From an uncultured Gammaproteobacteria bacterium (GTDB taxonomy: Bacteria; Patescibacteriota; Patescibacteriia; Magasanikbacterales; GWA2-37-8): a DNA stretch of 62,385 nt. The notes under the pieces are model-generated. The model had not been told where the DNA came from. It searched no databases and saw only the letters and a program-made list of their open reading frames with translations. Made by a program: the position numbers and the translations under genes. The stretch covers positions 1 through 62,385 of the forward strand of contig CAYZYP010000004.1 of the NCBI GenBank assembly GCA_964482695.1, given 5' to 3'. This document shows, one piece after another, positions 7,556 through 50,366 of this stretch; the stretch's first letter is position 1; the number at the start of each line of letters is the position of its first letter.

Positions 7556-7687
7556 ATAAATAGTAATTTTTATTTGCCTATATTATATCATATTTATAAA
7601 TTAAGTTAAAGCCAAGATAATATCAATAATGTTCATTTTTCTGATAAAATATGGTATAATATTAACATTGTATTAAAATACGCAAGT

Positions 7688-9379
7688 ATGCAAATTAATA
7701 ATGAAAAATTTAAGCGACTTTTAGTGGATTCTGGCTATGTGGCTGAAGCGAATTTTGACGCGGTTAGTAAAGAGGCTGAAAAAAGCGGTAAAACAATAGA
7801 AGAAATTCTACTGGCTGACGATTTAATTAAAGATGAGCAGTTGGGCCAACTTATAGCCGAAGAGCAGGGTTTTAATTTTGTTAATTTAAAAAAAGAAAAA
7901 ATAAACGAAGAGGTGCTTAATTTGGTGCCAGAACTCATGGCGCGCTCTAAAGGGGTTGTCGCTTTTAGTCGCGATAAACAAGGTTTTAAGGTGGGGATGA
8001 CTAACCCAAACGATTTAGAAGTTAAGCATTTGTTAGAAAAACGTTTAGGTGACAAAATTCAACCTTTTTATATTACTGACAAAGATTTTAATGACGCTTT
8101 TTTCCAATACAAAGCCAGTTTAAAAGATGAGTTTGCCAACGTCCTTAAACAAATGGACGAAGCGTCTCTGTCCCGCCAACAACGAGATGCTCTAACTGTT
8201 AAATTAGTTGATATTTTATTAGAATATGGTTATCAAAATAAAGCTTCTGATATTCACGTGGAGCCATACCCGGCAAAAGTAGTTGTGCGTTTTCGTATTG
8301 ATGGTGTAATGCATGATGTTTTGGAAATTAAAAAAGAATTAGCCGAATTTATAGTTACTCGTATTAAAATTTTATCCAAGATGCGTACCGATGAACACCA
8401 AGCGGCGCAAGACGGTAAAATTCGCTATGTTGGAACAGAAGAAAAAATAGATATTCGTGTTTCAGTATTACCGGTAACTTATGGCGAAAATGTAGTTATG
8501 CGATTATTATCAGCCAAAAGTCGTCAGTTTAATTTGTTAGATTTGGGTTTGGGAGAAGACGACCTAAAAAAAGTTAAACGAGCTATTAAAAATCCGCATG
8601 GAATGATTTTGGCAACCGGTCCAACTGGTAGCGGTAAAACTACTACCTTGTATGCCTTAATAAAGATTTTAAATAAACGAGATGTTCATATTTCAACCAT
8701 TGAGGATCCGGTTGAGTATGATATTGACGGCGTTAGTCAAATTCAGGTTAATCCTAAAACAAATCTAACTTTCGCGCAGGGTTTGCGTTCCATTGTGCGC
8801 CAAGATCCGGACATTATAATGGTTGGCGAAATTCGCGACGAAGAAACCGCCGGTATAGCGGTAAATTCCGCTCTAACAGGACATTTAGTATTATCTACTA
8901 TCCACACTAATGACGCGGCTACTACTTTGCCGCGTTTAATAGATATGAAAGTAGAACCATTTTTAGTCGCTTCTACTATCAAGTTGATTATCGCTCAAAG
9001 ATTAATTCGTAAAATTTGTGAAAAATGTCGTGTGTCGTACAAGATAAACGACGAAATTAAAATGATTTTGGAGAGCGAACCAGTTGTTAAAGAAATATTA
9101 CAAAGCAAGGGCTACAAGAATTTAGAAAAATTACGTTTATACAAAGGTAAAGGTTGTAAGGTATGCGACAATACTGGTTATATCGGGCGAATAGGTATTT
9201 TTGAAATTATGGAAATGACCGATGAAATTAGAAAAATGATTTTGCAAAGATCTTCAAGCGATGAAATAACCGAGCAGGCCTACAAAGATGGTATGCGTTC
9301 AATGATGGAAGATGGTCTTGAAAAAGTTTTAGAAGGACAGACTACTTTGGAAGAAGTGATTAGAGTGGCGAGGAGATAA
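7688..9379 (+). CDS. pilB: type IV pilus assembly ATPase (GspE/PilB family)
   Basis: 563 aa. Walker A 'GPTGSGKTTT', Asp box, Walker B 'IMVGEIRD', His box 'TGHLVLSTIHTN', and the tetracysteine motif CEKC...CKVC. Confidence 0.9.
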   Translation: MQINNEKFKRLLVDSGYVAEANFDAVSKEAEKSGKTIEEILLADDLIKDEQLGQLIAEEQGFNFVNLKKEKINEEVLNLVPELMARSKGVVAFSRDKQGFKVGMTNPNDLEVKHLLEKRLGDKIQPFYITDKDFNDAFFQYKASLKDEFANVLKQMDEASLSRQQRDALTVKLVDILLEYGYQNKASDIHVEPYPAKVVVRFRIDGVMHDVLEIKKELAEFIVTRIKILSKMRTDEHQAAQDGKIRYVGTEEKIDIRVSVLPVTYGENVVMRLLSAKSRQFNLLDLGLGEDDLKKVKRAIKNPHGMILATGPTGSGKTTTLYALIKILNKRDVHISTIEDPVEYDIDGVSQIQVNPKTNLTFAQGLRSIVRQDPDIIMVGEIRDEETAGIAVNSALTGHLVLSTIHTNDAATTLPRLIDMKVEPFLVASTIKLIIAQRLIRKICEKCRVSYKINDEIKMILESEPVVKEILQSKGYKNLEKLRLYKGKGCKVCDNTGYIGRIGIFEIMEMTDEIRKMILQRSSSDEITEQAYKDGMRSMMEDGLEKVLEGQTTLEEVIRVARR

Positions 9380-23038: not shown

Positions 23039-23050
23039 ATTTAAAGCGGG

Positions 23051-24598
23051 CTATTCTTCGGCGTGTTCTCTAAACAAGCTTTTAAATCTTAAATATTCGC
23101 TTAAACGTAAACCGCTAAATTTACCAATTAATAAAATTAACAGCAAAGGAATGAGTATTAGTTCGGGCCAAGACATTACTAAATTATTAAAAGATGTCCA
23201 ACTAATTAGATAATAACAAGCTGTTACAACAATTAAGGTTTCCAGCACTCCAAAAACAGCCCCGCGAAAACCTTCTTCGGATTGGGCGGCCATAAATTTT
23301 TCGGCCACGCTAGACATTACCAACATTGGAAAAATGCTTACCGACAAATTTACAGACAAGCCAAAAAATAAAACCAACCAGACAACAGTTAAAAAAGACA
23401 AACTAATAATGCTCAAATTTAGAGCCACCTTGGATAAATAAAGCAGTTCAAATTTATTTAGAATATATTTGACAATATAGCCGATTATTACCGCGAACAG
23501 AAAAGTAATAATGCCAAACCAAATACCAAGAATATAAAATGAAGCTGCCGTAATTACCGGAGTATAAATTCCAAAAGTGGAAAGGCCGATAATTTGACGA
23601 AAAAATACTACTACGCAAGCCAAAAATGGTATGAGTAGAATTAAATAAATACTATTTCCAGAAACATCTTTAGCCACAAAACTAGTTATCAGGTTTGATA
23701 AAACAAGAAAATTTGACTTTTTTCCTCGTTCATCAATAACTTTATATTCAACACCCCTGTTTTTTAATGTGTCAGCGGTTTTGGAATAATCTTTAATACT
23801 TAGAAGAGGGGAAAGAGCTTCTTGGCGGGTTAGTAGAATATATTTAGGCTTGATTATTTTAAAAGACTGGTAAGCAAAGTTAGAAGCAACATCCATGTTA
23901 CCATCACTAATGGTGACGAAAAATTTATTTTTAATAATTTCTTTATCTTCATCGGTAGCGTTTTGCCAGAAACGAGTAAAAGCCTGCAAGCCACTAAAAG
24001 ATTTAGTATAGAAGATAAGAACGTCGGTATCTGTTATGTAGTTACTGATTTTAGCGATTTCTTTAACCAGATTGTCCTCGGTTAAAAATTCTGTTAAGAA
24101 CCCCCCACCGCCTTCTTTGATAGTAGAAAGAACCTGCAAAGCGACGCCGTTCTCTGCGGCTTGTAATTTAATTTGATTAACCTCTCCTTCAATTTTTCTA
24201 TCAATAATCAGCAACGCTCTTTTATCATAAACAAATATTTGCTGGCTAACAGAACTGGATTCGTTATTTTGAGTTATGGTTAGCATGACGTTATATTTGC
24301 CAATTTTTTTATACTGGTGCACCGCGTCTTTGCCAACGGCTTGAACATTATCGCCAAAATCCCAAATATATTTTGGCGTGCCAGTTGGTAAAATACTAGA
24401 ATTAACAGCGTCAAAAATTACTTTTTTTTCAACTTGTACAAATTCCTCGGCTTTAATTTTTGCCGTTAATTTGTCAATTTTGGCTTCCTCACCAATGTTT
24501 TCGTTGCCAGTGCTGGTGGTTGCTTTTGTGTTGTCTTGGCCATATACAGGTGTCGCTAAAAATAAAAAAATTAGGACAAAAATTATTACTTTTTTCAT
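23051..24598 (-). CDS. secreted PKD-domain protein anchored by a C-terminal 7-TM module (the 7TM type usually fused to an inactive transglutaminase)
   Basis: Signal peptide, 'PKYIWDFGDNVQAVGKDAVHQYKKIGKYNVMLTI' (PKD), seven hydrophobic segments, and the ending 'GKFSGLRLSEYLRFKSLF'. Confidence 0.7.
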   Translation of the reverse strand: MKKVIIFVLIFLFLATPVYGQDNTKATTSTGNENIGEEAKIDKLTAKIKAEEFVQVEKKVIFDAVNSSILPTGTPKYIWDFGDNVQAVGKDAVHQYKKIGKYNVMLTITQNNESSSVSQQIFVYDKRALLIIDRKIEGEVNQIKLQAAENGVALQVLSTIKEGGGGFLTEFLTEDNLVKEIAKISNYITDTDVLIFYTKSFSGLQAFTRFWQNATDEDKEIIKNKFFVTISDGNMDVASNFAYQSFKIIKPKYILLTRQEALSPLLSIKDYSKTADTLKNRGVEYKVIDERGKKSNFLVLSNLITSFVAKDVSGNSIYLILLIPFLACVVVFFRQIIGLSTFGIYTPVITAASFYILGIWFGIITFLFAVIIGYIVKYILNKFELLYLSKVALNLSIISLSFLTVVWLVLFFGLSVNLSVSIFPMLVMSSVAEKFMAAQSEEGFRGAVFGVLETLIVVTACYYLISWTSFNNLVMSWPELILIPLLLILLIGKFSGLRLSEYLRFKSLFREHAEE

Positions 24599-30883: not shown

Positions 30884-31684
30884 ATGATCCCATACTTTCA
30901 ATACAATTCTTTCCTCTTTGGTCCAATCGCCATTCAAGTATGGGGGATTTTTGTTTCTTTGGGGCTTTTGGTGGCAATAATATTTGCCTATCGGTTAGCG
31001 CGTAAATATTTTTTATCAGGCGAAGTGATGCTGGATTTGGCTATTTGGGTTTTAATAGGCGGGTTTTTAATGGCACGCGCCTTTCATGTGATTTTCTACG
31101 AACCAACTTACTATATTGTTAATCCATTGGATGTAATTAAATTTTGGCAAGGCGGCGCTTCTTCTTTGGGTGGGTTTATTGGCGCTGGCTTGGCCGCTTG
31201 GTTGTTTTTTAAAAAACGGCATTTTAAGTTAAAAGAAGCATTGCCTTATTTAGATATTGGCGTTTTAAGTTTGTGGTTGGGATGGGGGATAGGTCGCATT
31301 GGTTGTTTTATGATTCACGATCATCCCGGCCATTTGACCAACTTTTTTTTAGCAGTTAATTTTTCTGGCGGCGCCAGATACGATTTAGGCTTGTTGGATT
31401 CGTTGCTAGGTTTTTTACTATTTACTATTTACTATTTACTATTTACTCGTTTGATAAGAATTCGCTGGGGGTTAGTCGCCCTACTATCTTTTATGGATTA
31501 CGCCTTGGTAAGATTTTTATTTGATTTTCTTCGCGCTACTGATTTACCACAAAGTGACATTAGATATTGGCTACTCACTCCGGCGCAGTGGGGGATGACA
31601 GTTTTATTTTTTATCTTGACCATTATCCTAATTTACGGTATAAAAGTACAGAACGTTGCTAAGAAAGAAGTTAAAAGTATATAA
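30884..31684 (+). CDS. lgt: prolipoprotein diacylglyceryl transferase
   Basis: 266 aa, multi-TM. 'WGIGRIGCFMIHDHPG' corresponds to the Lgt 'GRxGNFxN' region. Confidence 0.85.
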   Translation: MIPYFQYNSFLFGPIAIQVWGIFVSLGLLVAIIFAYRLARKYFLSGEVMLDLAIWVLIGGFLMARAFHVIFYEPTYYIVNPLDVIKFWQGGASSLGGFIGAGLAAWLFFKKRHFKLKEALPYLDIGVLSLWLGWGIGRIGCFMIHDHPGHLTNFFLAVNFSGGARYDLGLLDSLLGFLLFTIYYLLFTRLIRIRWGLVALLSFMDYALVRFLFDFLRATDLPQSDIRYWLLTPAQWGMTVLFFILTIILIYGIKVQNVAKKEVKSI

Positions 31685-39350: not shown

Positions 39351-42098
39351 ATGTCATTTTTAACTAAAATTTTCGGCGATCCTAATAAAAAAGTAATAGA
39401 AAGTCTTCAGCCGATTGTTGAAAAAATTAATTCTCTTGAGCCAGAGATGGAAAAATTAAATCTCGACCAATTACGCGAAAAAACCGCTATTTTTAAAGAT
39501 CGTTTAAACAAAGGCGAAACTTTAGATAATATTCTGCCAGAAGCTTTCGCGGTTGTTAGAGAAACTTCCAAACGTCTAACTGGCATGCGCCATTATGATG
39601 TCCAGCTAGTTGGCGGTATAGTGCTTCATCGTGGCCAGATATCTGAAATGCGTACTGGTGAAGGTAAAACTTTGGTAGCCACTTTGCCAATATATCTAAA
39701 CGCCTTAACTGGTCGTGGTGTGCATTTGGTTACTGTTAACGATTATTTGGCCAAGCGCGACGCTGTTTGGATGGGGCAGATTTATAGCGCTTTGGGTTTA
39801 AGTGTTGGTATTATACAACAGCAAATGGGTTCTTTTAAACTTAAAAATTCAACAAGTAATAAAGAAAATAAACAAAATTCAGAAGAACAAAATCAAAATT
39901 CCGAACAAGGTGTTTTTAAAGTAGAGAATGAATTTTTAGAAAATTGTACTCGCCAAGAAGCCTATAATTGCGATATTACTTATGGTACTAACAATGAATT
40001 TGGTTTTGATTATTTACGCGATAACATGGTTGGTGCTTTGGAACAAATGTCGCAAAGGCCTTTTTATTATGCCATAGTAGACGAAGTAGATTCTATTTTA
40101 ATAGATGAAGCTCGTACCCCACTGATAATTTCCGCTCCAGCCGAAAAAGCCACAGATAAGTATTACAAATTCGCTGAATTAACCAGACGTTTAAAAGAAA
40201 ACGAAGATTATAATGTAGACGAAAAAATGAGATCTGCCACTTTGTCGGAAGTTGGAATAAATAAAATGGAAAAATGGTTAGGAGTAGAAAATATTTACGC
40301 CGAAGGTGGAATTTCGACAGTCCATCACGTAGAACAAGCTTTGCGCGCGCAAACATTATTTCAACGGGATCGTGATTATATTATAGAAAATGGTGAAATA
40401 ATAATTGTTGATGAATTTACTGGTCGTAAAATGCCCGGCAGGCGTTATAGCGAAGGTTTACATCAAGCTATAGAAGCCAAAGAAAACGTCGATATTCAAC
40501 AAGAAAGTCAAACCATGGCAACAATTACTTTTCAGAATTATTTTCGTATGTACAAAAAGTTGGCTGGTATGACTGGCACGGCAGTAACCGAAGCCGAAGA
40601 GTTTGGTAAAATTTACAATTTAGAAGTAGTGGTTGTCCCTACTGATAAAACTAGCCAGAGAATAGATTATCCAGATAGAATTTATAAAACAGAAGAAGCA
40701 AAATTTAAAGCGATTGTCCAAAAAGTTAAAGAATCACAAGCCAAAGGCCAGCCAGTTTTAATCGGTACTGTTTCTGTAGACAAAAACGAGCTATTAAGCG
40801 AATATTTAAACCAAGAAGGAGTTTTGCACGAAATTTTAAATGCCAAAAACCATGAGCGTGAAGGAGAAATTATCGCTCAAGCTGGCCGAGCCGGCAAGGT
40901 TACTTTAGCAACCAATATGGCTGGTCGAGGCGTTGACATTATTCTTGGTGGTAATCCTCCAGATAAAACAGAAGCAGAAAAGGTAAAAATGGCTGGCGGT
41001 TTATTAGTAATTGGTACTGAACGCCATGAAAGTAGGCGTATAGACAACCAACTACGCGGTCGTTCTGGCCGTCAAGGCGATCATGGCCAATCACAGTTTT
41101 ATCTTTCAACCGAAGATGATTTAATGCGTATTTTTGCCGGCGATCGCATTCGCAACGTAATGAATACGCTTCGTGTGCCCGACGATATGCCAATAGAACA
41201 AAAAGCTATTACTCGAATTATCCAGTCCGCGCAAAGTAAAGTTGAAGGCATTCATTTTGACACAAGAAAACACTTATTAGAATATGATGATGTTTTAAAT
41301 CGCCATCGCGAGGTTATTTACGGCAAAAGACGCGAAGTGCTGGATGTTTATGCCAAACAAAAACAAGCTAACGAAAATATAGACAAAACCTTGCGCCAAA
41401 TAATTTTGGGAATGATTGAACAGGAATTAGAACAAATAGTTTCTTTTCATACCAACAGCGAAGCAAAAGAGGATTGGGATATAAAAGAAATCAGTGAATC
41501 GGTTGTTACTATTTTCCCAGTAATATCCACAGAAAAAGATAAAATAGCCGAATTTACCAAATCAATTGGACAAGAAAAAATAGACGAAATTACAGCTCGT
41601 ACCAACATTATTGAATATTTAGTTTCTTTGTCAAAACAAAAATACGAAGAATTGTTAGTAAAACAAGTACCAGATCAAAATATATTGCTAGAAATAGAAA
41701 AACAGGTTTTATTGCGAGCAATTGATAATTTGTGGATAGATCATTTAGTAGCAGTTGATTATTTACGTACAGGTATTGGTTTGCGTGGTTATGGCCAACA
41801 CGATCCTTTGGTAGAATACAAGAAAGAAACTTTTCACATGTTCAATGAGTTATTAAGTCTTATTCAAAAAGAGGTTGTTTATTTAATTTATAAAGTAAAT
41901 ATAGGCATTCAATTAGCGCCGTCTATTATGGCCAAAGAAAATATGATTTTAAAGGGTGCGGAAAAAACCACTGGCGAGGGTAATCAGCAATTAAATTCTA
42001 ATAATAAACAGCGCGATGCCAGTGGCAATAAGATAGGTCGCAACGATCCTTGCCTGTGTGGAAGCGGCAAAAAGTTTAAGCGCTGTTGCGGAACGTAA
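39351..42098 (+). CDS. secA: preprotein translocase ATPase SecA
   Basis: 915 aa with 'MRTGEGKTLVATL', 'DEVDSILIDEARTPLIIS', 'TNMAGRGVDI' and the C-terminal zinc motif 'CLCGSGKKFKRCCG'. Confidence 0.95.
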   Translation: MSFLTKIFGDPNKKVIESLQPIVEKINSLEPEMEKLNLDQLREKTAIFKDRLNKGETLDNILPEAFAVVRETSKRLTGMRHYDVQLVGGIVLHRGQISEMRTGEGKTLVATLPIYLNALTGRGVHLVTVNDYLAKRDAVWMGQIYSALGLSVGIIQQQMGSFKLKNSTSNKENKQNSEEQNQNSEQGVFKVENEFLENCTRQEAYNCDITYGTNNEFGFDYLRDNMVGALEQMSQRPFYYAIVDEVDSILIDEARTPLIISAPAEKATDKYYKFAELTRRLKENEDYNVDEKMRSATLSEVGINKMEKWLGVENIYAEGGISTVHHVEQALRAQTLFQRDRDYIIENGEIIIVDEFTGRKMPGRRYSEGLHQAIEAKENVDIQQESQTMATITFQNYFRMYKKLAGMTGTAVTEAEEFGKIYNLEVVVVPTDKTSQRIDYPDRIYKTEEAKFKAIVQKVKESQAKGQPVLIGTVSVDKNELLSEYLNQEGVLHEILNAKNHEREGEIIAQAGRAGKVTLATNMAGRGVDIILGGNPPDKTEAEKVKMAGGLLVIGTERHESRRIDNQLRGRSGRQGDHGQSQFYLSTEDDLMRIFAGDRIRNVMNTLRVPDDMPIEQKAITRIIQSAQSKVEGIHFDTRKHLLEYDDVLNRHREVIYGKRREVLDVYAKQKQANENIDKTLRQIILGMIEQELEQIVSFHTNSEAKEDWDIKEISESVVTIFPVISTEKDKIAEFTKSIGQEKIDEITARTNIIEYLVSLSKQKYEELLVKQVPDQNILLEIEKQVLLRAIDNLWIDHLVAVDYLRTGIGLRGYGQHDPLVEYKKETFHMFNELLSLIQKEVVYLIYKVNIGIQLAPSIMAKENMILKGAEKTTGEGNQQLNSNNKQRDASGNKIGRNDPCLCGSGKKFKRCCGT

Positions 42099-42145
42099 AT
42101 TATCCACTTGCTTTTTTTAATGAAAAGAGTAAAATTAACCACCAA

Positions 42146-42310
42146 CGAACTCATTTAGGATTTTCTATTTAACGCCTCATACATACTGATTTTTTTCCGC
42201 CAAAACTCGTCCCGCCTTTGGCGGGACTTCGCCCCCTCGGGGGTTTCCATTGGCGAAAAAAATCAGTATATATTTTGGCTTAAAATATAACAAAACACTA
42301 AATGAGTTAA
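42146..42310. mobile_element. MITE-like element B (same termini as element A, in inverted orientation)
   Basis: Termini CGAACTCATTTAGG (42146-42159) and ACTAAATGAGTTAA (42297-42310) share an 11-nt perfect inverted core. Inner 20-21-nt arms span 42183-42269 around TCCCGCC-TTTG-GCGGGA. Confidence 0.5.
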
Positions 42311-42339
42311 ATAAGATTATCTTGAAATTTAAATTATAT

Positions 42340-44412
42340 ATGTCAAATAAACGTCCTCAAGTAAGACAGGCTACTAAAAAACAGGTAAAATTAAGGGTAT
42401 TAGGCGCGGCTGTTTTGGCAATTTTAAGTCTAGTGGCAGTTTTCCCTAATAAAATTAATATTGGTATTAATTGGGTAAATAAAAAGACTAATTTAGGCGT
42501 GCCAGCCTTGCCAAGCAAAGGTTTTAATTTGGGTTTGGATTTACAAGGCGGAGCGCATCTGATTTATCAAGCCGACACCACTGTAGTAGAAGCCAAAGAT
42601 CAGGCTAGTTCGGTAGAAGGCGTGCGTGACGTAATTGAAAGGCGCGTAAGAGGAGGCCTTGGAGTGGCCGAACCATTGGTGCAGACTACCAAAGTAGGAA
42701 ATGATTATCGGGTTATAGTTGAATTACCAGGGGTTCAGGATGTTTCCAAAGCAATTAAAATGATAGGTGAAACACCATCTTTGGAATTTAAAGAAGAAAA
42801 TAACGCTCCAGCCAGAGAATTAACAGCCGAAGAAAAGAAACAATTGGCTGATTATAACAAAAAAGCAGAAAATAAAGCCAAAGAAGCCTTAAATGAAGTT
42901 AACAAGCCAGGAGCTGATTTTGCTAAGTTAGCTGTAAAATATACCGAAGACGAACAATCAAAAAATAATAATGGTGATTTGGGTTTTATAGACGACAGTA
43001 TCTATCCAGAATTATATGCTTGGGCCAATCAGCGCAAAGATGGCGAAGTGAGTAAAGATTTAGTAAAAAGTAGCACAGGTTTAAACATAGTTAAAAAAAT
43101 TTCTTCGCAGGATGGCGAAACAGAATATTCTGCCGCTCATTTACTTGTTTGTTATAAAGGAGCGCAGATGTGCGATAATCCTAAATATTTAACAAAAGAC
43201 GAAGCAAAAAATAAAATTACCGAAATTAAAAAAGAAATAACTGCTAAAAATTTTACTGATTTAGTTAAAAAGTATTCTACCGAACCGAGCGCCACAACCA
43301 CTGGTGGTAATTTAGGTTGGTTTAAAAAAGGGGACATGGTGTCTGAATTTGAAAACAAAGTTGTTGCCATGGCTACAGGCACTATTTCCGATATGGTAGA
43401 AACTCAATTTGGTTATCATTTAATTTATAAAAAAGATGAACGAAAAGCAAAAAATTATCAAGTGGCAAGGATATTTGTAAAAACAAAACAAGCGACAGAT
43501 ATTGTCCCTCCGGCCGAACAATGGAAAAGCACCGGCTTATCCGGTAAACAATTAAAAAGAGCCGAGGTTCTCCAAGATCAGCAAAACGGTCAGATTCAAG
43601 TTAGTTTGAATTTTGATTCTGATGGCACTAAGCTGTTTGCTGATATTACTACTCGCAATACAGGAAAACCAGTAGCGATTTTTTTAGATGGCGAAGCCAT
43701 TAGTGTGCCAAATGTAAACGAGCCGATACTTAGCGGCAGTGCCGTGATTACCGGTCGTTTTACCTTTAACGAAGCAAAATTATTAGCTCAACGTTTAAAT
43801 TCTGGCGCTTTGCCAGTGCCAATTAAATTGGTAGCCCAGCAAACCGTTGGCGCCACTCTTGGCTCTGATTCTTTAACCAAAAGTTTAAAAGCAGGATTAC
43901 TTGGTTTTTTGGCGGTCATATTATTTATGATATTATACTATCGCTTGCCCGGCATATTAGCTGTTTTGGCTTTGGGATTATACGCGGTATTAAGCCTAGC
44001 TATTTTCAAAATAATTGGCGTAACCTTAACTCTTTCCGGCATCGCTGGTTTTATATTATCTATTGGTATGGCAGTAGACGCCAATGTTCTTATTTTTGAG
44101 CGTCTAAAAGAAGAGTTGCGTTTAAAAAAGAGCTTGCGTTCTGGTTTAGAAGAATCATTTGTTCGTGCTTGGCCGTCTATCCGTGATAGTAATATTACCA
44201 CTTTAATTAGTTGTATGTTTTTAATTTGGTTGGGCGGTGGCTTTGTGCAGGGTTTTGCTGTAACTTTGGCCATAGGTGTTTTGGTTAGCATGTTTACAGC
44301 CATTACTATCACTAGGAATTTATTACGTTTTATTTGTCCTTGGTTTAAAGAAAATGGCAATTGGCTGTTTTGGGGATACACAAAACAAGAAATTCAAGAT
44401 CCTAAATCATAA
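42340..44412 (+). CDS. secD: SecD with a ~230-aa parvulin (PpiC-type PPIase) insertion in the periplasmic head
   Basis: Start taken at ATG 42340 because the track TTG start lies inside the repeat element. SecD blocks 'GLDLQGGAHL' and 'VIVELPGV' plus C-terminal TMs were seen. The insert has 'GGNLGWFKKGDMVSEFE...QFGYHLIY'. Confidence 0.85.
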   Translation: MSNKRPQVRQATKKQVKLRVLGAAVLAILSLVAVFPNKINIGINWVNKKTNLGVPALPSKGFNLGLDLQGGAHLIYQADTTVVEAKDQASSVEGVRDVIERRVRGGLGVAEPLVQTTKVGNDYRVIVELPGVQDVSKAIKMIGETPSLEFKEENNAPARELTAEEKKQLADYNKKAENKAKEALNEVNKPGADFAKLAVKYTEDEQSKNNNGDLGFIDDSIYPELYAWANQRKDGEVSKDLVKSSTGLNIVKKISSQDGETEYSAAHLLVCYKGAQMCDNPKYLTKDEAKNKITEIKKEITAKNFTDLVKKYSTEPSATTTGGNLGWFKKGDMVSEFENKVVAMATGTISDMVETQFGYHLIYKKDERKAKNYQVARIFVKTKQATDIVPPAEQWKSTGLSGKQLKRAEVLQDQQNGQIQVSLNFDSDGTKLFADITTRNTGKPVAIFLDGEAISVPNVNEPILSGSAVITGRFTFNEAKLLAQRLNSGALPVPIKLVAQQTVGATLGSDSLTKSLKAGLLGFLAVILFMILYYRLPGILAVLALGLYAVLSLAIFKIIGVTLTLSGIAGFILSIGMAVDANVLIFERLKEELRLKKSLRSGLEESFVRAWPSIRDSNITTLISCMFLIWLGGGFVQGFAVTLAIGVLVSMFTAITITRNLLRFICPWFKENGNWLFWGYTKQEIQDPKS

Positions 44413-44427
44413 ATTTGAAATTATTTT

Positions 44428-45333
44428 ATGAATATTCCTTTTATTAAATATTCCAAATTACTGTTAGTTGTAAGCGGTATAATAGTAGTTGTTAGCATTT
44501 TTTTCTTGTTTAAATGGGGTTTAAAACCAGGTATTGATTTTACCGGTGGCAGTTTAATGGAATTGTCTTTTAGTGAAAAAGTTCCAAAGAGCGAAGAAAT
44601 TTCGGCTATTTTTTCTGATAATAATTTAAAAGATGTTGTTCCGCAAAAGTCTGGCGAAAAATCATACATTGTGCGTACTAATTTTATCGACGAAGAAGCG
44701 CACCAGAAAATTTTAAAGCAAGCCAGAGATAAATATCAAAAAGATAAAAATTTAGTACGTGAAGAAAGATTTGAAACCATTGGTTCATCTGTTAGCCAAC
44801 AATTGCGTCGCCGTGCTATTTGGGCCATTATTTTTGTAAATTTAGGTATTATAGCTTATGTAGCTTACGCTTTTAGGCGCGTTTCTCGGCCAGTAGCCAG
44901 TTGGAAATATGGTGTTTTAGCCATTGTGGCTTTGGTGCATGATGTTTTATTAGTAATGGGTGTGTTTGCTATTTTAGGACATTATAGCGGCGTAGAAGTT
45001 GACATACCATTTGTGGTAGCGATTTTAACAGTACTAGGTTATTCTGTAAACGACACCATAGTAGTTTATGATCGTATTAGAGAAAATTTATTAAGACATA
45101 GCGCCGAGGCTTTTCCAGAAGTTGTCAATAACGGCTTAAATCAAACATTAATGCGTTCTATTAATACTACGACAAAAACCTTATTGCCATTATTAGCCTT
45201 GTATTTTTTTGGTGGAGTAACTATTCATAATTTTGTCTTAGCTTTGCTTATCGGTATTGCAAGTGGCGCTTATTCTTCTATATTTATTGCTAGTCCGCTA
45301 CTTGTTGTGGTAGAAAAGTGGCAAAAGAGATAA
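44428..45333 (+). CDS. secF: protein-export membrane protein SecF
   Basis: 301 aa with 'GIDFTGGSLMEL' and the 'LGYSVNDTIVVYDRIREN' SecF signature. Confidence 0.9.
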   Translation: MNIPFIKYSKLLLVVSGIIVVVSIFFLFKWGLKPGIDFTGGSLMELSFSEKVPKSEEISAIFSDNNLKDVVPQKSGEKSYIVRTNFIDEEAHQKILKQARDKYQKDKNLVREERFETIGSSVSQQLRRRAIWAIIFVNLGIIAYVAYAFRRVSRPVASWKYGVLAIVALVHDVLLVMGVFAILGHYSGVEVDIPFVVAILTVLGYSVNDTIVVYDRIRENLLRHSAEAFPEVVNNGLNQTLMRSINTTTKTLLPLLALYFFGGVTIHNFVLALLIGIASGAYSSIFIASPLLVVVEKWQKR

Positions 45334-45349
45334 AAATTTTGATTTTAAT

Positions 45350-45382
45350 ACAGGCTGGTGAAAAAACTAGCCTGTTTTTTTT
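45350..45382 (+). terminator. rho-independent terminator after secF
   Basis: ACAGGCTGG-loop-CTAGCCTGT followed by T8. Confidence 0.7.
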
Positions 45383-45473
45383 GCAAAAGGTGTGATATAA
45401 TTATAGTTATAAAGTTCACAAAGTACTAGAACTTTATAAATTTTATAACTTTTAACTTTATAACTAAAGTTTT

Positions 45474-45644
45474 ATGTCTGAATCATCTGTTCGCCACATG
45501 ATAGCGATTTTAGCTACTTTAATTTGTCTGATGGCTTATTATAGTGGGTACGTATCAGGAAAGTTCGGTTGGTGGTGGACGGTTTTTGGAATTTTGATAA
45601 TTTATGGCGCTGTATATAAAATTATTAATACCGGCGGCCATTAA
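45474..45644 (+). CDS. 56-aa two-TM membrane protein (below the ORF-track length cut-off)
   Basis: ATG 45474 to TAA 45642-45644 gives MSESSVRHMIAILATLICLMAYYSGYVSGKFGWWWTVFGILIIYGAVYKIINTGGH. It ends 5 nt before the next gene. Confidence 0.45.
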   Translation: MSESSVRHMIAILATLICLMAYYSGYVSGKFGWWWTVFGILIIYGAVYKIINTGGH

Positions 45645-45649
45645 ATTTT

Positions 45650-47125
45650 ATGTCTCCACTTGTTATAGATTTACCATTTGGCATAAGCGTAGACCTTTCC
45701 TTTTGGATAGGCATTTTCCAATTAGGAAGCTGGGAGATGTTTAAGACAATTTTTGCTATAATTGGCTGGGAAGTTCTGGCTGTTGTTTTTATTTACATGG
45801 GGGAAATAATGTGGTTGAAATACCGCCAAAGCATGTATGAATCACATTGGAAATGGGTGTTACTGGCAGTGGACATTCCAGAAGAAACTATCCAGAGTCC
45901 CAAAGCCGTTGAACAAATTTTTGCTCATTTAAGCGGCGCACTACTACACACCAATATTGCAGAAAAGTATTGGCACGGTGAAAAGCAAAAATGTTTTAGT
46001 TTAGAAATTATTAGCATAGAAGGTTATATCCAATTTTTAATACACACCGAAGCGGCTTTTAGAGATTTGGTTGAAGCGTCTATTTATGCCCAATATCCGC
46101 AAGCAGAAATTACCGAAGTAGAAGATTATGTTAATAATATTCCTCGTAAATATCCAAACGACACCCATGATGTTTTTGCTGTTGAATTTGGCTTAAATGC
46201 CAATGAAACTTTTCCTATTCGTACTTATAGTGAATTTGAGTACAGTATTAGTAAAGATGTGGTATTTAGTGACCCGATGGCATCATTGTTGGAGACTTTT
46301 TCGCGTGTAGGAGCCGGAGAAAATTTTTGGATGCAAATTATTATTGAGCCAACTGGTAATTCTTGGAAAGAAAAAGGCGTTGAATTAGCTAAAAAAATTA
46401 TAGAACATCGCGGTTTGGATATAAGCGGCGGTCATGCCCATAATTCTTGGGCGAGTAAGATTGGAGAAATACCAATGAAATTAATGCAAGAATTATTTAA
46501 TATTTGGCATTGGCAGTTTGAGCCAAGCGAAGAACACGCTGTTGAGGTTGAACCACTAGGTAAGATGCAAGAGTTAACTCCAGGGCTAAAAGACGCTGTT
46601 GAAGCGATAGAAACTAAAATTTCACGCGTTGGTTTTAAGAGTAAAATTAGAGTTTTGTATATTTCACGGAAAGAAATTTATAATCCAATGAAATTAATTA
46701 AAGCGTTTATTGGTTCAATTAATCAGTTTTTTAACAGTACTCGCAATGGTATTGTCCCAAAATTAGCCACGCAGTTTCATTATGCCTTTAAAAAATCAAG
46801 AACTGCTCATGCCAAAAATAGACTTGTTAAAGCTTATATAAAGAGAAAAATAAAAACTGGCATTAATCCATATATTTTAAATACCGAAGAATTAGCCACT
46901 GTTTGGCATTTCCCGTTGCCATTTGTCAAGGCACCGTTGGTGCAAAAAGCATCTACTAAACGCGTAGAACCGCCAATAAACTTACCTTTAGAAACTTTTG
47001 AAGATTTTCCACTAGTTATTGATGAGGATAAAAAAGATAATTCAGATATCAAAGCTGATACTAATCGCAGTGATAAAATAACCACCGATAGCGGCTCTTT
47101 TCCCAATGATATTAATTATGGGTAA
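45650..47125 (+). CDS. hypothetical membrane-anchored protein (two N-terminal TM segments plus a large soluble domain)
   Basis: 491-aa ORF. No catalytic motif recognised. Confidence 0.5.
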   Translation: MSPLVIDLPFGISVDLSFWIGIFQLGSWEMFKTIFAIIGWEVLAVVFIYMGEIMWLKYRQSMYESHWKWVLLAVDIPEETIQSPKAVEQIFAHLSGALLHTNIAEKYWHGEKQKCFSLEIISIEGYIQFLIHTEAAFRDLVEASIYAQYPQAEITEVEDYVNNIPRKYPNDTHDVFAVEFGLNANETFPIRTYSEFEYSISKDVVFSDPMASLLETFSRVGAGENFWMQIIIEPTGNSWKEKGVELAKKIIEHRGLDISGGHAHNSWASKIGEIPMKLMQELFNIWHWQFEPSEEHAVEVEPLGKMQELTPGLKDAVEAIETKISRVGFKSKIRVLYISRKEIYNPMKLIKAFIGSINQFFNSTRNGIVPKLATQFHYAFKKSRTAHAKNRLVKAYIKRKIKTGINPYILNTEELATVWHFPLPFVKAPLVQKASTKRVEPPINLPLETFEDFPLVIDEDKKDNSDIKADTNRSDKITTDSGSFPNDINYG

Positions 47126-47141: not shown

Positions 47142-47678
47142 TTAATAGTTATTTTTTTCATCTACAGTTTGGAGTAATAACTTAGATGATTTAATAAAAT
47201 ACAAAAGTTCAAGGCCACCGATTAGAACAAAGGTATAAAATAAATCTCCTAACAAACTATTGCGGAAAAAGGGGACAGCCATGTAGTAACTTTGCAAAAG
47301 ACCATAAAAATTATGGGTATACATTGAGCCAAAAGCCCAAACCGCCCAGTTGGTAATTAAAAAAAATAAAATACTGCCTAGCAAAGCTCCACCTAAGATA
47401 GTGTGAAATTTTTTATTTTTCTTGATATAACTGCCAATAACTGCTATCAAAACAAAAGCAGTATAAACCGCCAACATTATCGGCCAATTATAGAACCCGA
47501 TAAATAAATCGCTGATAAACATCGCGGGCAGAGTGATAAGCAGAGACCATCTGGTTGGCAAATAAATGGCCCCAAACAGGGCAATAGCACCAATAGGGGC
47601 AAAGTTAGCTGGGTGGGGTAGGAAGCGGCAAATAACGCCTAACATGATAAGTAAGACAATAGGGATGTATTTTTGCAT
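47142..47678 (-). CDS. small 6-TM putative vitamin (cobalamin) transporter, ECF-S-component-like
   Basis: 178 aa with 'RFLPHPANFAPIGAIALFGAIYL'. It is the last gene of the riboswitch-controlled operon. Confidence 0.5.
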   Translation of the reverse strand: MQKYIPIVLLIMLGVICRFLPHPANFAPIGAIALFGAIYLPTRWSLLITLPAMFISDLFIGFYNWPIMLAVYTAFVLIAVIGSYIKKNKKFHTILGGALLGSILFFLITNWAVWAFGSMYTHNFYGLLQSYYMAVPFFRNSLLGDLFYTFVLIGGLELLYFIKSSKLLLQTVDEKNNY

Positions 47679-47715
47679 ATAAATTTTTCAATGATTTTTT
47701 AAGTTCTATGTTTAA

Positions 47716-49524
47716 TTATACAATATACTTCAACAATTTCCAACCCAAGTATAGTCCAAGAATAAGGGCGCCAGAACCAGAGGTGGCGGCTACTTTTTTG
47801 GCAGTAGAACGAGCGGATGAAGTTGGTATTAATTCAGTAGGGGTTTCTTTTGCAAGTTGTTGTTTTGCTTGCCCGCTATTTGTGTAAGTAAAATTATTTT
47901 TATCCTCAGTTGGTTGTTGTTTTTTTGTTTTACTAGTTTCAGTTATTTTTGTTAATTTGGGTTTTGCTATTTCTTTGGTACTGTTTGCGACGTTCAATTT
48001 TATTTTTTCAATCACAGTAGATGTAGTGGTTGTACTAGTAGTCGCGACGCTACTTGAAGCAGTGATTGATATTAAAATAGTGCTAGTTGTTGTGATGGCA
48101 GTTGACGAAGAAACAGTAGAGGTTGTAAAAATAATTGTTGTTGTAGGTATGGTTACCGTTGATGTAGTTGAACTTGTGTTATTGTTTAATTGTTCAAAGT
48201 TGGGATTGGCGCCGGAATATTGATTTTGTGAAAAACGCGGTTCAATTGGCCAACTTTGGCCTAATAACGCTGGTACACCATGCTTGGTGGCAAACCAATC
48301 TGTTGTGCCAGGCGCCCAGTTTGGTTCGTAATAGCCACTGTTATTTAAAGTCTCTATTAATATATTCCATGGATTTTTATTATCTTTAAACCAATCTGTC
48401 TGGCTTTCGTTTAATGAGCTTATACCCATTATAGCCCAGCTAGTGGTTAAAGCATCACTACTAAAATAACCCCAGCCGCCATCGTCTAACTGTTGTGTTT
48501 TTAAATAATTTTTTGCTTTTGTGAAAATTGTTTCATCTAAGTTTATTCCTTTATTTCGCGCGTATTTGAGAGTGTTAACAGCGCCGCCGGTAATATCAGC
48601 GCCAGGCCAGCCATCCCAAGTAAAAGCGCCATCTACAGTTTGATCCTCTGTGATAGTTTTTATTATATCTTGAATAATATTTTCGGCAATGTCAGTGCCG
48701 GCAGAAAGAAGCGCTATTAGTCCAAAAATATCGTCGTTTATACCTCTTTGTCCATAAAGATTATTTAAATAACACTTGCTTTTAATGTCGTTGATTATTT
48801 GTCGCATTAGGTTATCCGAGGTATCTAGGCCAGAAGTATATAGGGCTAGATAATGGCGTGGATAAGCCGCGCAGATATTTATGTCGCTAGCATCGGTAAA
48901 TTGATAATTTTTAGCATATTCAAACAAAGATAATCCGTCGTATTTTTTTATTTCCGCAGGATTTTGTCCAGCGGCCACAAAAGACATTATAGACCAGTCG
49001 GTAATACCAGCGTCAATAATTTTTCCGGTTTTATCTTGTTGGAATTTTAGATAGTTTAAAATTTTATTTACTGCTTGATTTATTTGTTCGCTGGATATTA
49101 TAGTTGGCGCGGTAGAAGAAGTTGTTGCGGCGGTATCGGTAGTGTTAGTGTCAATAGGAGTGGAAGTGGTAGCGGGCGAACCGCCAGTAGAATGGTTAGT
49201 GTTAGAGTTAGTTTGGCCTTGATTAGTAGTAGTGGAGTTGGTTGAAGTGGTGTTTGTTGTGGTACTTGTTGTGCTAGGTAAAGTGCTACTAGTAGAGGTT
49301 ATGGTGGTTGACGACGCGGTCGCGGTGGTTGTAGCTGTCACAGTTGTTGTATTTGTAGATATGGTAGAGGTAACAGTCGTGCTAGTTGTGGCAATGGTTG
49401 TGGTCGTGGCAGTGTTAACAGTAGAAGTTGTAGAGGAAGTGGTTTCTGCGTTAGAAAACGATACAAAAAACAAACAGCCGGCAAGAACAATGGTAGCGAA
49501 TAATAAATTATTGGTAGTTTTCAT
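47716..49524 (-). CDS. surface-anchored alpha/alpha-toroid (prenyltransferase/squalene-oxidase-repeat-like) protein with Thr/Ser-rich stalks
   Basis: Signal peptide, two Thr/Ser low-complexity regions, the repeat signature 'QQLDDGGWGYFSSDALTTSWAIMG', and a C-terminal TM anchor. Confidence 0.6.
   Translation of the reverse strand: MKTTNNLLFATIVLAGCLFFVSFSNAETTSSTTSTVNTATTTTIATTSTTVTSTISTNTTTVTATTTATASSTTITSTSSTLPSTTSTTTNTTSTNSTTTNQGQTNSNTNHSTGGSPATTSTPIDTNTTDTAATTSSTAPTIISSEQINQAVNKILNYLKFQQDKTGKIIDAGITDWSIMSFVAAGQNPAEIKKYDGLSLFEYAKNYQFTDASDINICAAYPRHYLALYTSGLDTSDNLMRQIINDIKSKCYLNNLYGQRGINDDIFGLIALLSAGTDIAENIIQDIIKTITEDQTVDGAFTWDGWPGADITGGAVNTLKYARNKGINLDETIFTKAKNYLKTQQLDDGGWGYFSSDALTTSWAIMGISSLNESQTDWFKDNKNPWNILIETLNNSGYYEPNWAPGTTDWFATKHGVPALLGQSWPIEPRFSQNQYSGANPNFEQLNNNTSSTTSTVTIPTTTIIFTTSTVSSSTAITTTSTILISITASSSVATTSTTTTSTVIEKIKLNVANSTKEIAKPKLTKITETSKTKKQQPTEDKNNFTYTNSGQAKQQLAKETPTELIPTSSARSTAKKVAATSGSGALILGLYLGWKLLKYIV
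47995..48190 (-). repeat. second low-complexity Thr/Ser-coding tract (approximate limits)
   Basis: Encodes 'TSSTTSTVTIPTTTIIFTTSTVSSSTAITTTST...'. Confidence 0.6.
49090..49445 (-). repeat. low-complexity Thr/Ser-coding tract (approximate limits)
   Basis: Runs of ACN/AGY/TCN codons encode 'TTSSTTSTVNTATTTTIATTSTT...'. Confidence 0.6.
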
Positions 49525-49556
49525 AATTGAAATGAGTGAAAGAAAAACGAATGAAA

Positions 49557-50141
49557 TTATATCTTAATATATTTCCAAGTGATGATATCATTAGATCTGA
49601 TAATATAACTAGATATACCTACTTTGGCAGATTCATCATTAATATAGTAAACCCAGTACTTATTTTGTTGGCCATTTTTAATACCATTAATTTCTTCTAT
49701 CAAAAATCCTAAACTTCCATAATCTTTGCTTTTAAAATCAAGGCTAGCGTTTTGTTGTAACAACAGCATGGCGTTATAGGCTGTTGTGGTAGCTGTAAGC
49801 TGGAGATTATAAGTTGTCTCTGCTATTTTTATTTTAGAATTCAAGCAATTTTGTTGGCAATTAACAAATATTTTATTTTCATCTTTGTTTTTTGCCGCTG
49901 GCTTTTTGTTGGTTGGTGAAGACGATGTTATTGTTTGTTGTTTGATTTCAGCGGTATTTTTGGTTGGTATTTTTTGAGTTGTAGTAGTAGAGTTATTGGT
50001 ATTATTTGGTTCGTTGGTTTTGTATTCTGTGTTTAAAGGGGATGTAGTAGCCAAAGCATACCAGCCACTAATAGCTGTTGTTAATAACAGGGTTATAAAT
50101 AAAATTAAATGATATTTGTGTTTTTTAGCAAATTCGCGCAT
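49557..50141 (-). CDS. DUF4430-type (transcobalamin/intrinsic-factor beta-domain-like) secreted protein
   Basis: N-terminal TM/signal. The C-terminal 'GSLGFLIEEINGIKNGQQNKYWVYYINDESAKVGISSYIIRSNDIITWKY' matches the DUF4430 pattern. Confidence 0.7.
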   Translation of the reverse strand: MREFAKKHKYHLILFITLLLTTAISGWYALATTSPLNTEYKTNEPNNTNNSTTTTQKIPTKNTAEIKQQTITSSSPTNKKPAAKNKDENKIFVNCQQNCLNSKIKIAETTYNLQLTATTTAYNAMLLLQQNASLDFKSKDYGSLGFLIEEINGIKNGQQNKYWVYYINDESAKVGISSYIIRSNDIITWKYIKI

Positions 50142-50154
50142 AAAATACTTGTTT

Positions 50155-50184
50155 AAAAATAAAATCTTCCCAAGTAGGAAGATT
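50155..50184 (-). terminator. riboswitch expression-platform terminator
   Basis: Minus strand reads AATCTTCC-TACTTG-GGAAGATT followed by TTATTTTT. It ends about 14 nt before the ATG at 50141. Confidence 0.6.
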
Positions 50185-50225
50185 AAAGATAAAAAATAAT
50201 CAGCATTTCCTGCTCGGAATACACA

Positions 50226-50319
50226 TATATTTGAAGACCGGACTTATTCTCCCGCCAAAGGCGGGGGACTTTACCGTTGCGGCACAGTGGAGGAATTTTA
50301 CCTCACTTCCACAAATATA
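50226..50319 (-). promoter_or_regulatory. cobalamin riboswitch aptamer (compact, class-II-like)
   Basis: Minus strand reads TATATTTG-[GTGGAAGTGAGGTAAAATTCCTCCACTGTGCCGCAACGGTAAAGTCC...AAGTCCGG...]-CAAATATA. GGAA...GGTAAAATTCC...CCACTG...ACGGTAAAGTCC resembles the Cbl core, closed by an 8-bp helix. Confidence 0.6.
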
Positions 50320-50337
50320 CGGATGAATTGTAATTCT

Positions 50338-50366
50338 AGTTTAATGAGTTTACTAGCGTCTGTCAA
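50338..50366 (-). promoter_or_regulatory. sigma70 promoter of the riboswitch operon
   Basis: On the minus strand: TTGACA (50366-50361), 17-nt spacer, TAAACT (50343-50338). Confidence 0.6.

Follow-up and report, generated by a model that had tools for sequence, protein, structure and literature searches.

We analyzed a three-gene operon on the minus strand (47142-50366) of a 62,385-nt stretch (positions 1-62,385) of contig CAYZYP010000004.1, the whole of this stretch being referred to here as the window. The operon lies behind a cobalamin (vitamin B12) riboswitch and encodes, in order, a DUF4430 protein related to the beta domain of the B12 carrier transcobalamin, a stalked surface protein built around an alpha/alpha toroid, and a six-helix membrane protein of the DUF6580 family (Table 1). 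Taken together, the data presented below suggest that it is probably a B12-repressed operon for the surface capture and import of corrinoids in a bacterium of the Patescibacteria, also known as the candidate phyla radiation (CPR). The window itself, with a GC content of ~35%, is a typical CPR genome fragment. Because the gene downstream is convergent with the operon, the transcription unit was taken to comprise these three genes.

For comparison, a genome collection was searched with a DUF6580 alignment, which yielded 80 related loci (numbered with the prefix L). All of them belong to metagenome-assembled genomes of Patescibacteria, mostly Magasanikbacteria; some are titled 'Gammaproteobacteria', which is obviously wrong. 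In these relatives, the DUF6580 gene is followed on its 3′ side by tRNA genes or by convergent genes. As a separate observation, the start codons of genes 1 to 3 in the window are preceded by AU-rich sequence in which no Shine-Dalgarno-like site was seen (50142-50169, 49525-49552, and 47679-47706, minus strand).

Table 1. Features of the operon and its flanks, in the direction of transcription of the operon (window coordinates).
Feature	Coordinates	Strand	Basis and details
Upstream gene, polysaccharide deacetylase	51162-50443	-	Pfam scan; ends 77 nt ahead of the promoter
Sigma-70-type promoter	50338..50366	-	Consensus scan; TTGACA (50366-50361), 17-nt spacer, TAAACT (50343-50338)
Conserved 5′ leader, ACAAUUnAA-like	50321..50331	-	Near-invariant 'AC-AAU' columns in 31 aligned leaders
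Cobalamin riboswitch aptamer, 94 nt, compact	50226..50319	-	RF01482 match and covariation
Closing strands of aptamer helix P1, UAUAUUUG / CAAAUAUA	50319-50312 / 50233-50226	-	
Antiterminator strand CCGAGCAGGAA	50207..50217	-	Invariant in 51 related leaders
Antiterminator partner UUCCUACUUGG	50180-50170	-	10 of 11 positions paired
Intrinsic terminator	50155..50184	-	Terminator scan; hairpin AAUCUUCCU-ACUU-GGGAAGAUU, then UUUUAUUUUU
Terminator hairpin	50184-50163	-	9 pairs, -9.4 kcal/mol
Gene 1, DUF4430 protein, 194 aa	49557..50141	-	Open reading frame and PF14478
DUF4430 domain, residues 125-192	49769-49566	-	PF14478
Gene 2, surface toroid protein, 602 aa	47716..49524	-	Open reading frame and PF13243
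Alpha/alpha toroid, residues ~139-431	49110-48232	-	AlphaFold2 model
C-terminal hydrophobic anchor GALILGLYLGWKLL, residues 585-598	47772-47731	-	
Gene 3, DUF6580 protein, 178 aa, six helices	47142..47678	-	Open reading frame and PF20221
Terminator-like hairpin 3′ of the last gene, tentative operon end	47080..47096	-	Consensus scan alone
Downstream neighbor gene	45650-47125	+	Convergent with the operon

The riboswitch and its expression platform

A cmscan search of the whole window against Rfam returned two matches above the gathering scores, a tRNA and the AdoCbl riboswitch family RF01482 at 50336-50195 (52.4 bits against a gathering score of 50, E = 9e-7). The original prediction, made from the sequence of the locus, had expected a match to RF00174; it held at the level of the clan, CL00101, which contains both families and within which overlapping matches were reduced to the best one, and it failed at the level of the family. 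Because the RF01482 score is barely over the threshold, independent support was looked for. Iterated nhmmer searches with the window leader showed that 60 of the 80 loci carry, ahead of the genes and on their strand, a homologous element. Among the 20 loci with no leader match, 14 are cut by a contig end ahead of the expected position and L024 has less than 500 nt of upstream sequence, while L033, L041, L048, L052, and L055 have ample upstream sequence in which nhmmer found no such element and Rfam no cobalamin riboswitch. Three of the seven tested loci with clear homologs pass the Rfam cut-off, the scores of homologous leaders being 58.9 bits in L015, 54.5 bits in L050, and 51.9 bits in L030; those below it include L004, L010, L056, and L059. 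Standard annotation would therefore miss most of the CPR copies, leaving B12 regulons under-annotated, and the addition of these riboswitches to Rfam would improve the annotation of B12 regulons in CPR genomes.

Covariation was counted in 31 aligned leaders over helix P1, the GAGG/CCUC hairpin, the 3-bp UGU/GCA hairpin, the CGG/CCG helix, and the variable hairpin of the P6 extension. In these helices 91.8% of the cells were paired, compared with 41-54% when the 3′ partners were slid. Compensatory changes on both sides were observed in 16 of the 24 aptamer pairs, including all eight pairs of P1, and none of 500 shuffles reached the observed covariation values, whereas the core and junction sequences of the aptamer were invariant. 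In the window, the closing strands TATATTTG and CAAATATA were found at 50319-50226 as originally given. The aptamer has a conserved four-way-junction core and a P6 extension reduced to a short hairpin, with no P2 module, in keeping with its supposed resemblance to compact class II riboswitches; this is the layout of the class II-like group in a published classification of cobalamin riboswitches (PMC7367189). Based on the Rfam match and the covariation, we concluded that the RNA is a real cobalamin riboswitch and that the control originally proposed for the operon is correct. A literature search found no paper that joins a cobalamin riboswitch with Patescibacteria.

The predicted promoter, TTGACA-N17-TAAACT, was likewise recovered, and a TTGACA-N17-TAnnnT arrangement, often with an extended-minus-10 TG, occurs at the equivalent distance upstream in most of 53 related leaders; it is thus more than a chance match to the consensus. 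A near-invariant ACAAUU begins 7-12 nt past the -10 box in the related leaders and, judging from this position, is probably the start of the RNA. The candidate -10 box TACAAT (50332-50327) was rejected: in the window TTGACA lies 28 nt upstream of it, and all relatives have a separate TAnnnT box 17 nt past TTGACA.

Besides the promoter, the aptamer, and the terminator, all of which are in place, the riboswitch contains an element that the original prediction had overlooked, the antiterminator strand CCGAGCAGGAA. It is the window copy of an invariant CGAGCAGG element (CCCGAGCAGGAA) that lies 5-40 nt 3′ of P1 in related leaders and whose only conserved complement in each locus is the 5′ arm and loop of the terminator. 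In L044, for instance, CCGAGCAGGAA pairs with UUCCUGCUCGG within AAUCUUUCCUGCUCGGCAAAGAUU, which is followed by a U-run. The duplex in the window has a free energy of -13.3 kcal/mol compared with -5.1 ± 2.3 kcal/mol for shuffles, 3 of 1000 of which were as good, and the duplexes of the relatives typically reach -12 to -20 kcal/mol compared with -5 to -8 kcal/mol for shuffled strands. Three other roles considered for CGAGCAGG, as a Shine-Dalgarno site, as the start of a small open reading frame, and as the 5′ arm of a local P13 hairpin, were rejected because the terminator 5′ arm and loop is its sole conserved partner. An invariant CGAGCAGG strand with this antiterminator role is peculiar to this CPR group.

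The terminator is also well kept, a hairpin with a run of at least five T being present at the equivalent place in 49 of 51 related leaders; in many or most relatives it consists of a weak stem, rich in A and U, that is capped by a loop of 8-10 nt containing YUCGG. The presence of an antiterminator/terminator pair implies that the ligand should favor termination, that is, an OFF switch. Loop L5 of the aptamer (UGU-GCC-GCA) contains CCG, as in the Bacillus subtilis yvrC riboswitch, where pairing of the L5 CCG with L13 couples the ligand to the terminator (PMC7367189), and the terminator hairpins of the relatives carry CGG in 22 of 49 cases and UGG in 8 of 49. A search for an aptamer segment able to sequester the antiterminator strand by pairing gave no convincing candidate. 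At low intracellular cobalamin, CCGAGCAGGAA would pair with the 5′ arm and loop of the terminator, allowing read-through and expression of the three genes. Cobalamin bound to the aptamer would withdraw the antiterminator strand or its partner, so that the terminator forms and the operon is switched off. This withdrawal may proceed via an L5-L13 kissing loop, a contact that cobalamin riboswitches typically use, in which the terminator loop would serve as L13 and the contact would stabilize the terminator directly.

The encoded proteins and their arrangement in relatives

The gene 1 product begins with a basic stretch and a 20-residue hydrophobic segment (residues ~11-31) ending in Ala-Leu-Ala, which from its sequence is either a signal anchor or a cleavable signal peptide. 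A polar low-complexity linker of ~75 residues connects it to the DUF4430 domain (transcobalamin beta-like, SLBB), which matched PF14478 with E = 6.5e-15 and 55.8 bits against a gathering score of 23.8. Single-sequence searches of the PDB with the DUF4430 protein and with the DUF6580 protein gave no match, and profiles were therefore needed. A profile of 21 orthologous DUF4430 domains matched residues 335-430 of haptocorrin (4kki, E = 1e-3), the C-terminal domains of intrinsic factor (E = 3e-3 for 3kq4 and 2pmv), and, weakly, transcobalamin 2. In haptocorrin and intrinsic factor, the matched region is the beta domain, which contacts B12. These matches support the original assignment of gene 1 as a beta-domain homolog, most clearly of haptocorrin and intrinsic factor, and, by analogy, suggest that the protein may bind a corrinoid as those domains do; they also agree with the published placement of such bacterial SLBB domains in a transcobalamin-like clade (PMC1796856). 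In each of the 60 related loci with a riboswitch, the gene next to it encodes the DUF4430 protein. No paper on a bacterial function was found in the literature under the name DUF4430.

All parts proposed for the gene 2 product, the toroid, the two Thr/Ser stalks, and the C-terminal anchor, are present. A signal peptide (residues 1-26) with an Ala-X-Ala-type cleavage site that is kept in homologs precedes the first stalk (residues 27-139, 66% Ser/Thr); the toroid, modeled by AlphaFold2 as 12 helices with a pLDDT of 92, is followed by the second stalk (residues 440-520, 49% Ser/Thr). The protein ends in GALILGLYLGWKLLKYIV, and the core of its hydrophobic tail, GLYLGW[RK], is kept in homologs. 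The tail as a whole, GLYLGW[RK]xLxxxV (47731-47772, minus strand), may be not just any transmembrane helix but a signal for anchoring or sorting that is specific to the lineage. The signal peptide also contains a lipobox-like LAGC with Cys17 (49474-49485, minus strand), and Lgt is encoded in the window (30884-31684, plus strand). Lipidation is nonetheless doubtful, as Cys17 is unconserved in homologs, which have Ala-X-Ala sites; the signal peptide was therefore taken as type I.

The expected prenyltransferase-like repeats were found in the toroid, which matched PF13243 with 29 bits, SQHop_cyclase_C and SQHop_cyclase_N alone being listed in Pfam at E up to 0.1. In a profile search of the PDB it matched squalene-hopene cyclase (1gsz, E = 8e-33), prenyltransferase beta subunits (~1e-4), and complement C4. 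The model contains an alpha6/alpha6 fold of ~300 residues. Its top Foldseek matches were single-domain squalene-hopene-cyclase-like proteins (8pak, TM-score 0.66); transcobalamin was found at ranks 26 and 44 (2v3n, TMq 0.52, and 7qbe_C, TMq 0.55). The DxDD motif of the cyclases is degenerate, with GADIT (residues 308-312) in place of the D-V-D-D-T of squalene-hopene cyclase, and the protein is extracellular; an enzymatic role as a cyclase is therefore unlikely. The original view of the toroid as the alpha half of a transcobalamin-like binder is consistent with its fold class and context, on which the claim now rests because membership in the transcobalamin sequence family is absent.

The 178-aa product of gene 3, described earlier as a protein with six transmembrane segments, belongs to DUF6580 (PF20221, E = 3.5e-46, the sole Pfam match at E up to 0.1), and its AlphaFold2 model has six helices (pLDDT 83, with a low-confidence loop at residues 22-26). 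The best Foldseek match was the B12 transporter BtuM with cyanocobalamin (8c7p, TM-score 0.58/0.57, root-mean-square deviation 3.5 Å over 150 columns), followed by ThiT (0.55-0.58) and RibU (0.47-0.50), all others having a TM-score below 0.4. The suggestion of a small transporter of the ECF-S/DUF6580 type, where ECF stands for energy-coupling factor and S for its substrate-binding component, thus stands as regards the DUF6580 family and the S-component fold, and was not upheld as regards sequence, since no membership in a recognized S-component family was seen in Pfam at E up to 0.1.

In an hhalign alignment with the 182-aa chain of the ECF-CbrT structure 6FNP, PANFAPIGA of DUF6580 falls on IPNVQPVTD of CbrT and MFISDLFIGFYNW on MVISNIFLGFGIW. 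The common motifs are PxN[FV]xP and IS[DN]xFxGFxxW, around loop 1 and helix 3. The 6FNP fragment belongs to PF12822 and not to PF20221, and DUF6580 is therefore a separate, distantly related family. Invariant residues of DUF6580 comprise Arg18, Pro21, His22, Asn25, Phe26, and Pro28 in loop 1, as well as Ser56-Asp57, Thr109-Asn110, Trp114, and Pro136-Phe-Phe-x-Asn140; Cys17 is variable (A, C, or G). Of these, His22 is a candidate cobalt ligand. The family has 2,981 close relatives in a collection clustered at 90% identity, the named ones being all Patescibacteria and some carrying the NCBI label 'DUF6580 family putative transport protein', and a HMMER scan found 5,902 DUF6580 clusters at 50% identity (E up to 1e-3).

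The dominant gene order in the related loci is riboswitch, stand-alone DUF4430, toroid protein, an optional further small DUF4430, and DUF6580. This order with the leader was found in 60 of the 80 loci, and most of those without the full order are cut by contig ends. DUF6580 lies beside transcobalamin-like surface proteins in 77 loci. The toroid protein has one or two N-terminal DUF4430 domains of its own in 44 loci, most relatives combining a stand-alone DUF4430 protein with a DUF4430-DUF4430-toroid fusion. The form seen in the window, a toroid protein with no DUF4430 domain, occurs in only ~20 of 80 loci, and the window protein has a Ser/Thr-rich stretch where relatives carry these domains. 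Distant homologs outside this group (P0135-P0139) carry the toroid first and DUF4430 second in one chain (PF13243 and PF14478), which is the order of transcobalamin, and immediately ahead of the P0135 gene (locus L081) lies an RF00174 match that stays below the threshold (28.1 bits, E = 0.0017). The 181-aa gene that follows P0135 was considered as a DUF6580 counterpart and rejected.

Since the toroid and DUF4430 are repeatedly fused and repeatedly under B12 control, there is good evidence that they act together, and the functional link first proposed from their adjacency behind the riboswitch is reinforced. The description of the two domain types as split between two proteins is accurate for the window; it does not describe the typical state, and the toroid is not an obligate half, given the 44 fusions and the toroid-less loci. 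Comparison of the gene orders indicates that the split is probably a minority, derived architecture in which the gene 1 product supplies the sole beta-like domain, the toroid protein appearing to have lost its own.

A proposed route for corrinoid capture and import

In the reading that we consider likely, the operon serves a B12-repressed capture-and-import system. The DUF4430 protein, on its flexible polar linker and either held in the membrane or released outside, would bind a corrinoid. The tail-anchored toroid, kept at a distance from the membrane between its two mucin-like, Ser/Thr-rich stalks, would clamp or relay the corrinoid together with DUF4430, in trans here and in cis in most relatives. 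The corrinoid would then pass to DUF6580 and across the membrane; DUF6580 would act on its own in the manner of BtuM or, as CbrT does, together with an ECF module, which would be encoded elsewhere. Regulation by B12 and a B12-related function are considered far more certain than this reading as a whole, and the trans sandwich and solitary transport less certain than it. Precedents for such a clamp are transcobalamin and the fused bacterial proteins, and Fedosov and colleagues are said to have found that cleaved fragments of intrinsic factor re-assemble around cobalamin. A broader proposal, that DUF6580 is a new corrinoid transporter family, ECF-free, loaded by tethered transcobalamin-like domains, and the standard B12 importer of many Patescibacteria, is put forward tentatively, as a possibility that we would not yet favor. 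If this were true, the operon would be a self-contained, ATP-independent device for B12 capture and import, and the split arrangement would show that the transcobalamin sandwich can assemble in trans on a bacterial surface.

Among known systems, BtuM of Thiobacillus denitrificans resembles DUF6580 in its size of ~180 aa, six helices, S-component fold, B12 gene context, and absence of adjacent ECF genes, and it is a precedent for solitary S-component-like B12 transport (PMC6072759). The two are separate sequence families, with no match by phmmer or hmmsearch. BtuM depends on an essential Cys80 ligand in loop 3 (PMC6072759), whereas DUF6580 has instead the invariant His22, Asn25, Pro28, and Ser56-Asp57. 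Moreover, BtuM occurs in Proteobacteria behind the outer-membrane protein BtuB, and the DUF6580 protein of the window behind the surface DUF4430 and toroid proteins. ECF-CbrT of Lactobacillus delbrueckii (6FNP) is linked to DUF6580 by a marginal profile and hhalign match and the common motifs. CbrT requires the EcfA/A′/T module and is inactive alone (PMC5997447), in contrast to the window, where neither the operon nor the scanned open reading frames (ORFs) contain such genes. Firmicute cbrT loci are regulated by B12 riboswitches.

Transcobalamin, intrinsic factor, and haptocorrin share with the window proteins the combination of a toroid and a DUF4430/SLBB beta-grasp domain, between which B12 is sandwiched. 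The animal carriers are single soluble chains in the order alpha then beta, whereas the window encodes separate membrane-tethered proteins and its relatives have the order beta-beta-alpha; the window toroid also falls outside the alpha sequence family of transcobalamin. In bacteria, secreted SLBB-toroid proteins, whose SLBB domains fall in a transcobalamin-like clade, were predicted in 2007 by Burroughs et al. to be B12 scavengers; their operons often contain a second SLBB paralog and CbiO/CbiQ-type transporter genes, in organisms with no B12 synthesis (PMC1796856). In the lsa1836-1840 operon of Latilactobacillus sakei, two genes encode the secreted proteins Lsa1839 (beta-like) and Lsa1840 (alpha-like), a separation also seen in the window, and a complete ECF transporter lies next to them (bioRxiv 10.1101/864751). 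These bacterial operons have ECF energizing genes and a classical S component, whereas the window operon has DUF6580 only; the window system differs further in its Patescibacteria lineage, Ser/Thr-rich stalks, and conserved C-terminal tail anchor. Riboswitch-controlled surface capture of B12 that feeds a membrane transporter and enables competition for B12 is also a feature of BtuG and BtuH of Bacteroides, reportedly surface B12-binding lipoproteins (work attributed to Wexler, 2018, and Putnam, 2022). These have unrelated folds (beta-propeller and others) and deliver B12 to the TonB-dependent BtuB in two-membrane hosts.

The concept is thus already known, both as surface transcobalamin-like binders predicted in 2007 and as separate alpha and beta genes in L. 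sakei. What is new is the DUF6580 membrane partner, which is linked by structure, and weakly by sequence, to the two known B12-specific proteins of S-component type; an operon with no energizing genes, in a system that is widespread and highly conserved in Patescibacteria; the stalked, tail-anchored build of the protein; and the lineage-specific expression platform of the riboswitch. CPR bacteria have very few recognizable transporters. According to the study of BtuM, many bacteria that depend on B12 have no assigned membrane transporter for it (PMC6072759), and the operon makes DUF6580, which lies behind a cobalamin riboswitch in 60 of 80 loci, a directly testable candidate. It also adds a further major lineage to the bacterial transcobalamin-like system, from which the B12 carriers of animals have been proposed to derive, and the natural split and fused versions are useful for studying how two domains clamp B12.

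Several observations weigh against the capture-and-import reading. In the riboswitch, the window copy has UGG rather than CGG as the kissing motif, partly buried in the stem, and compared with its relatives a stronger terminator and a weaker antiterminator (one mismatch and one G-U pair); it may therefore switch less cleanly. No ECF module and no B12-dependent enzyme was detected in a scan of 34 of the larger ORFs, which make up most of the 59 in the window with 110 aa or more. For DUF6580, the Foldseek match to BtuM has a poor E value (0.26), a common outcome with small helical membrane proteins, and the sole PDB match of its profile, the 'Membrane protein' chain of 6FNP, is marginal both by E value (0.074) and by hhalign probability (65%). 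No conserved Cys corresponding to the cobalt-ligating loop-3 Cys of BtuM was found in DUF6580 residues 56-66, and no paper in the literature search names DUF6580. For the ligand, the L. sakei system has been claimed for heme uptake (bioRxiv 10.1101/864751). For the toroid, the profile search of the PDB returned no transcobalamin, and the domain is not a PF01122 member by sequence; its nearest relatives are terpene cyclases and prenyltransferases, of both of which its QxxDGGW repeats are typical. Finally, some loci contain DUF4430 and DUF6580 only, with a riboswitch (L015, L056, and L059) or with none (L033, L041, L048, and L084), and the existence of such minimal pairs means that the toroid is accessory and dispensable for the core function.

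The points on the toroid also bear on a rival explanation in which the core consists of DUF4430 and DUF6580, and the toroid has no contact with B12 and fulfills another surface role under common regulation, for example as a cell-wall or S-layer scaffold, as a spacer for DUF4430, in attachment to a host, or in stripping B12 from a host carrier. Besides the minimal loci, this rival can draw on the affinities of the toroid, which is closer to terpene cyclases and prenyltransferases than to transcobalamin and weakly resembles complement thioester domains, and on the linker of ~100 residues that separates DUF4430 from the toroid in the fusions. However, the toroid gene is kept in ~70 of the 80 loci, its conserved residues, including an NDD motif, are common to the CPR family and the distant fused homologs, and the pairing of toroid and DUF4430 recurs in both orders and in transcobalamin, where the toroid contacts B12 (PMC1796856). 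We therefore regard a toroid with no part in B12 binding as unlikely, although it is the strongest of the rivals.

The capture-and-import reading supposes a B12-type corrinoid as the ligand. An alternative is that the ligand is another tetrapyrrole or a corrinoid precursor, such as heme or cobinamide, and that the riboswitch merely reports the B12 status of the cell. In addition to the heme report for the separate alpha-like and beta-like proteins of L. sakei, cobinamide is also carried by ECF-CbrT (PMC5997447), and the 2007 prediction allowed for 'B12 or its precursors' (PMC1796856). Set against these are the best structural match of DUF6580, which is a B12 transporter, and the regulation itself, as cobalamin riboswitches overwhelmingly control B12 synthesis, B12 uptake, or B12-independent isozymes. 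Nor is corrinoid remodeling a known trait of CPR genomes, which further counts against this alternative, and we judge it quite improbable. Hardly any weight was given to the idea that DUF6580 is a membrane receptor or anchor for DUF4430, or an exporter, with import through another system: it accommodates a family with no experimental annotation in the literature, an operon with no ATPase or EcfT gene, and structural and profile matches that are weak by E value, but DUF6580 has TM-scores of 0.47-0.58 to three S-components (BtuM, ThiT, and RibU), stands last in a B12-repressed operon in 60 loci, is annotated by NCBI as a putative transport protein, and has in BtuM a precedent for solitary B12 transport (PMC6072759).

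Genomic surroundings of the operon

Reads covering the region come from groundwater DNA metagenomes only, and no RNA sequencing run contains it. Other genes of the window include type IV pilus genes, SecA, SecD/SecF, Lgt, a histidine kinase, and a DNA methyltransferase. Genes to the left of ~47.1 kb lie on the plus strand and those to the right on the minus strand, so that their orientations converge there, and the sign of the GC skew flips near 51 kb; this may indicate a replication terminus in the region. Alternatively, Thr codons (ACN) on the minus strand may account for the positive skew at 48-51 kb.

The arrangement of secA-secD-secF, a 491-aa ORF, and a convergent DUF6580 operon is syntenic between the window (39351-47125) and L084 (8476-16516), a 963-kb CPR contig that at this position carries only the minimal pair of a DUF4430 protein (122 aa) and DUF6580, with no cobalamin riboswitch detected. 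The 491-aa ORF was unmatched in our Pfam scan; the precomputed Pfam record of its L084 counterpart lists DUF8128. The extracytoplasmic part of the window SecD (42250-44412, plus strand) is interrupted by two PPIC-type peptidyl-prolyl isomerase (rotamase) domains, and the syntenic SecD of L084 likewise has a rotamase domain. Elsewhere in the window (20654-24598, minus strand), a 794-aa fusion joins a sugar-transfer-associated ATP-grasp domain to a MATCAP-type carboxypeptidase domain, and its gene adjoins one for a membrane protein with PKD and '7TM fused to inactive transglutaminase' domains.

Two observations concern RNAs of the related loci. The RNase P RNA of a Magasanikbacteria locus (L055, 1641-1954) has the archaeal RF00373 as its best Rfam model (125.8 bits) and not a bacterial one. 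In L081, the features noted at 1086-1211, 6092-6188, and 7676-7867 are LOOT RNA and DUF3800-V RNA beside a DUF3800 gene, and the RF00174 match ahead of the P0135 gene.

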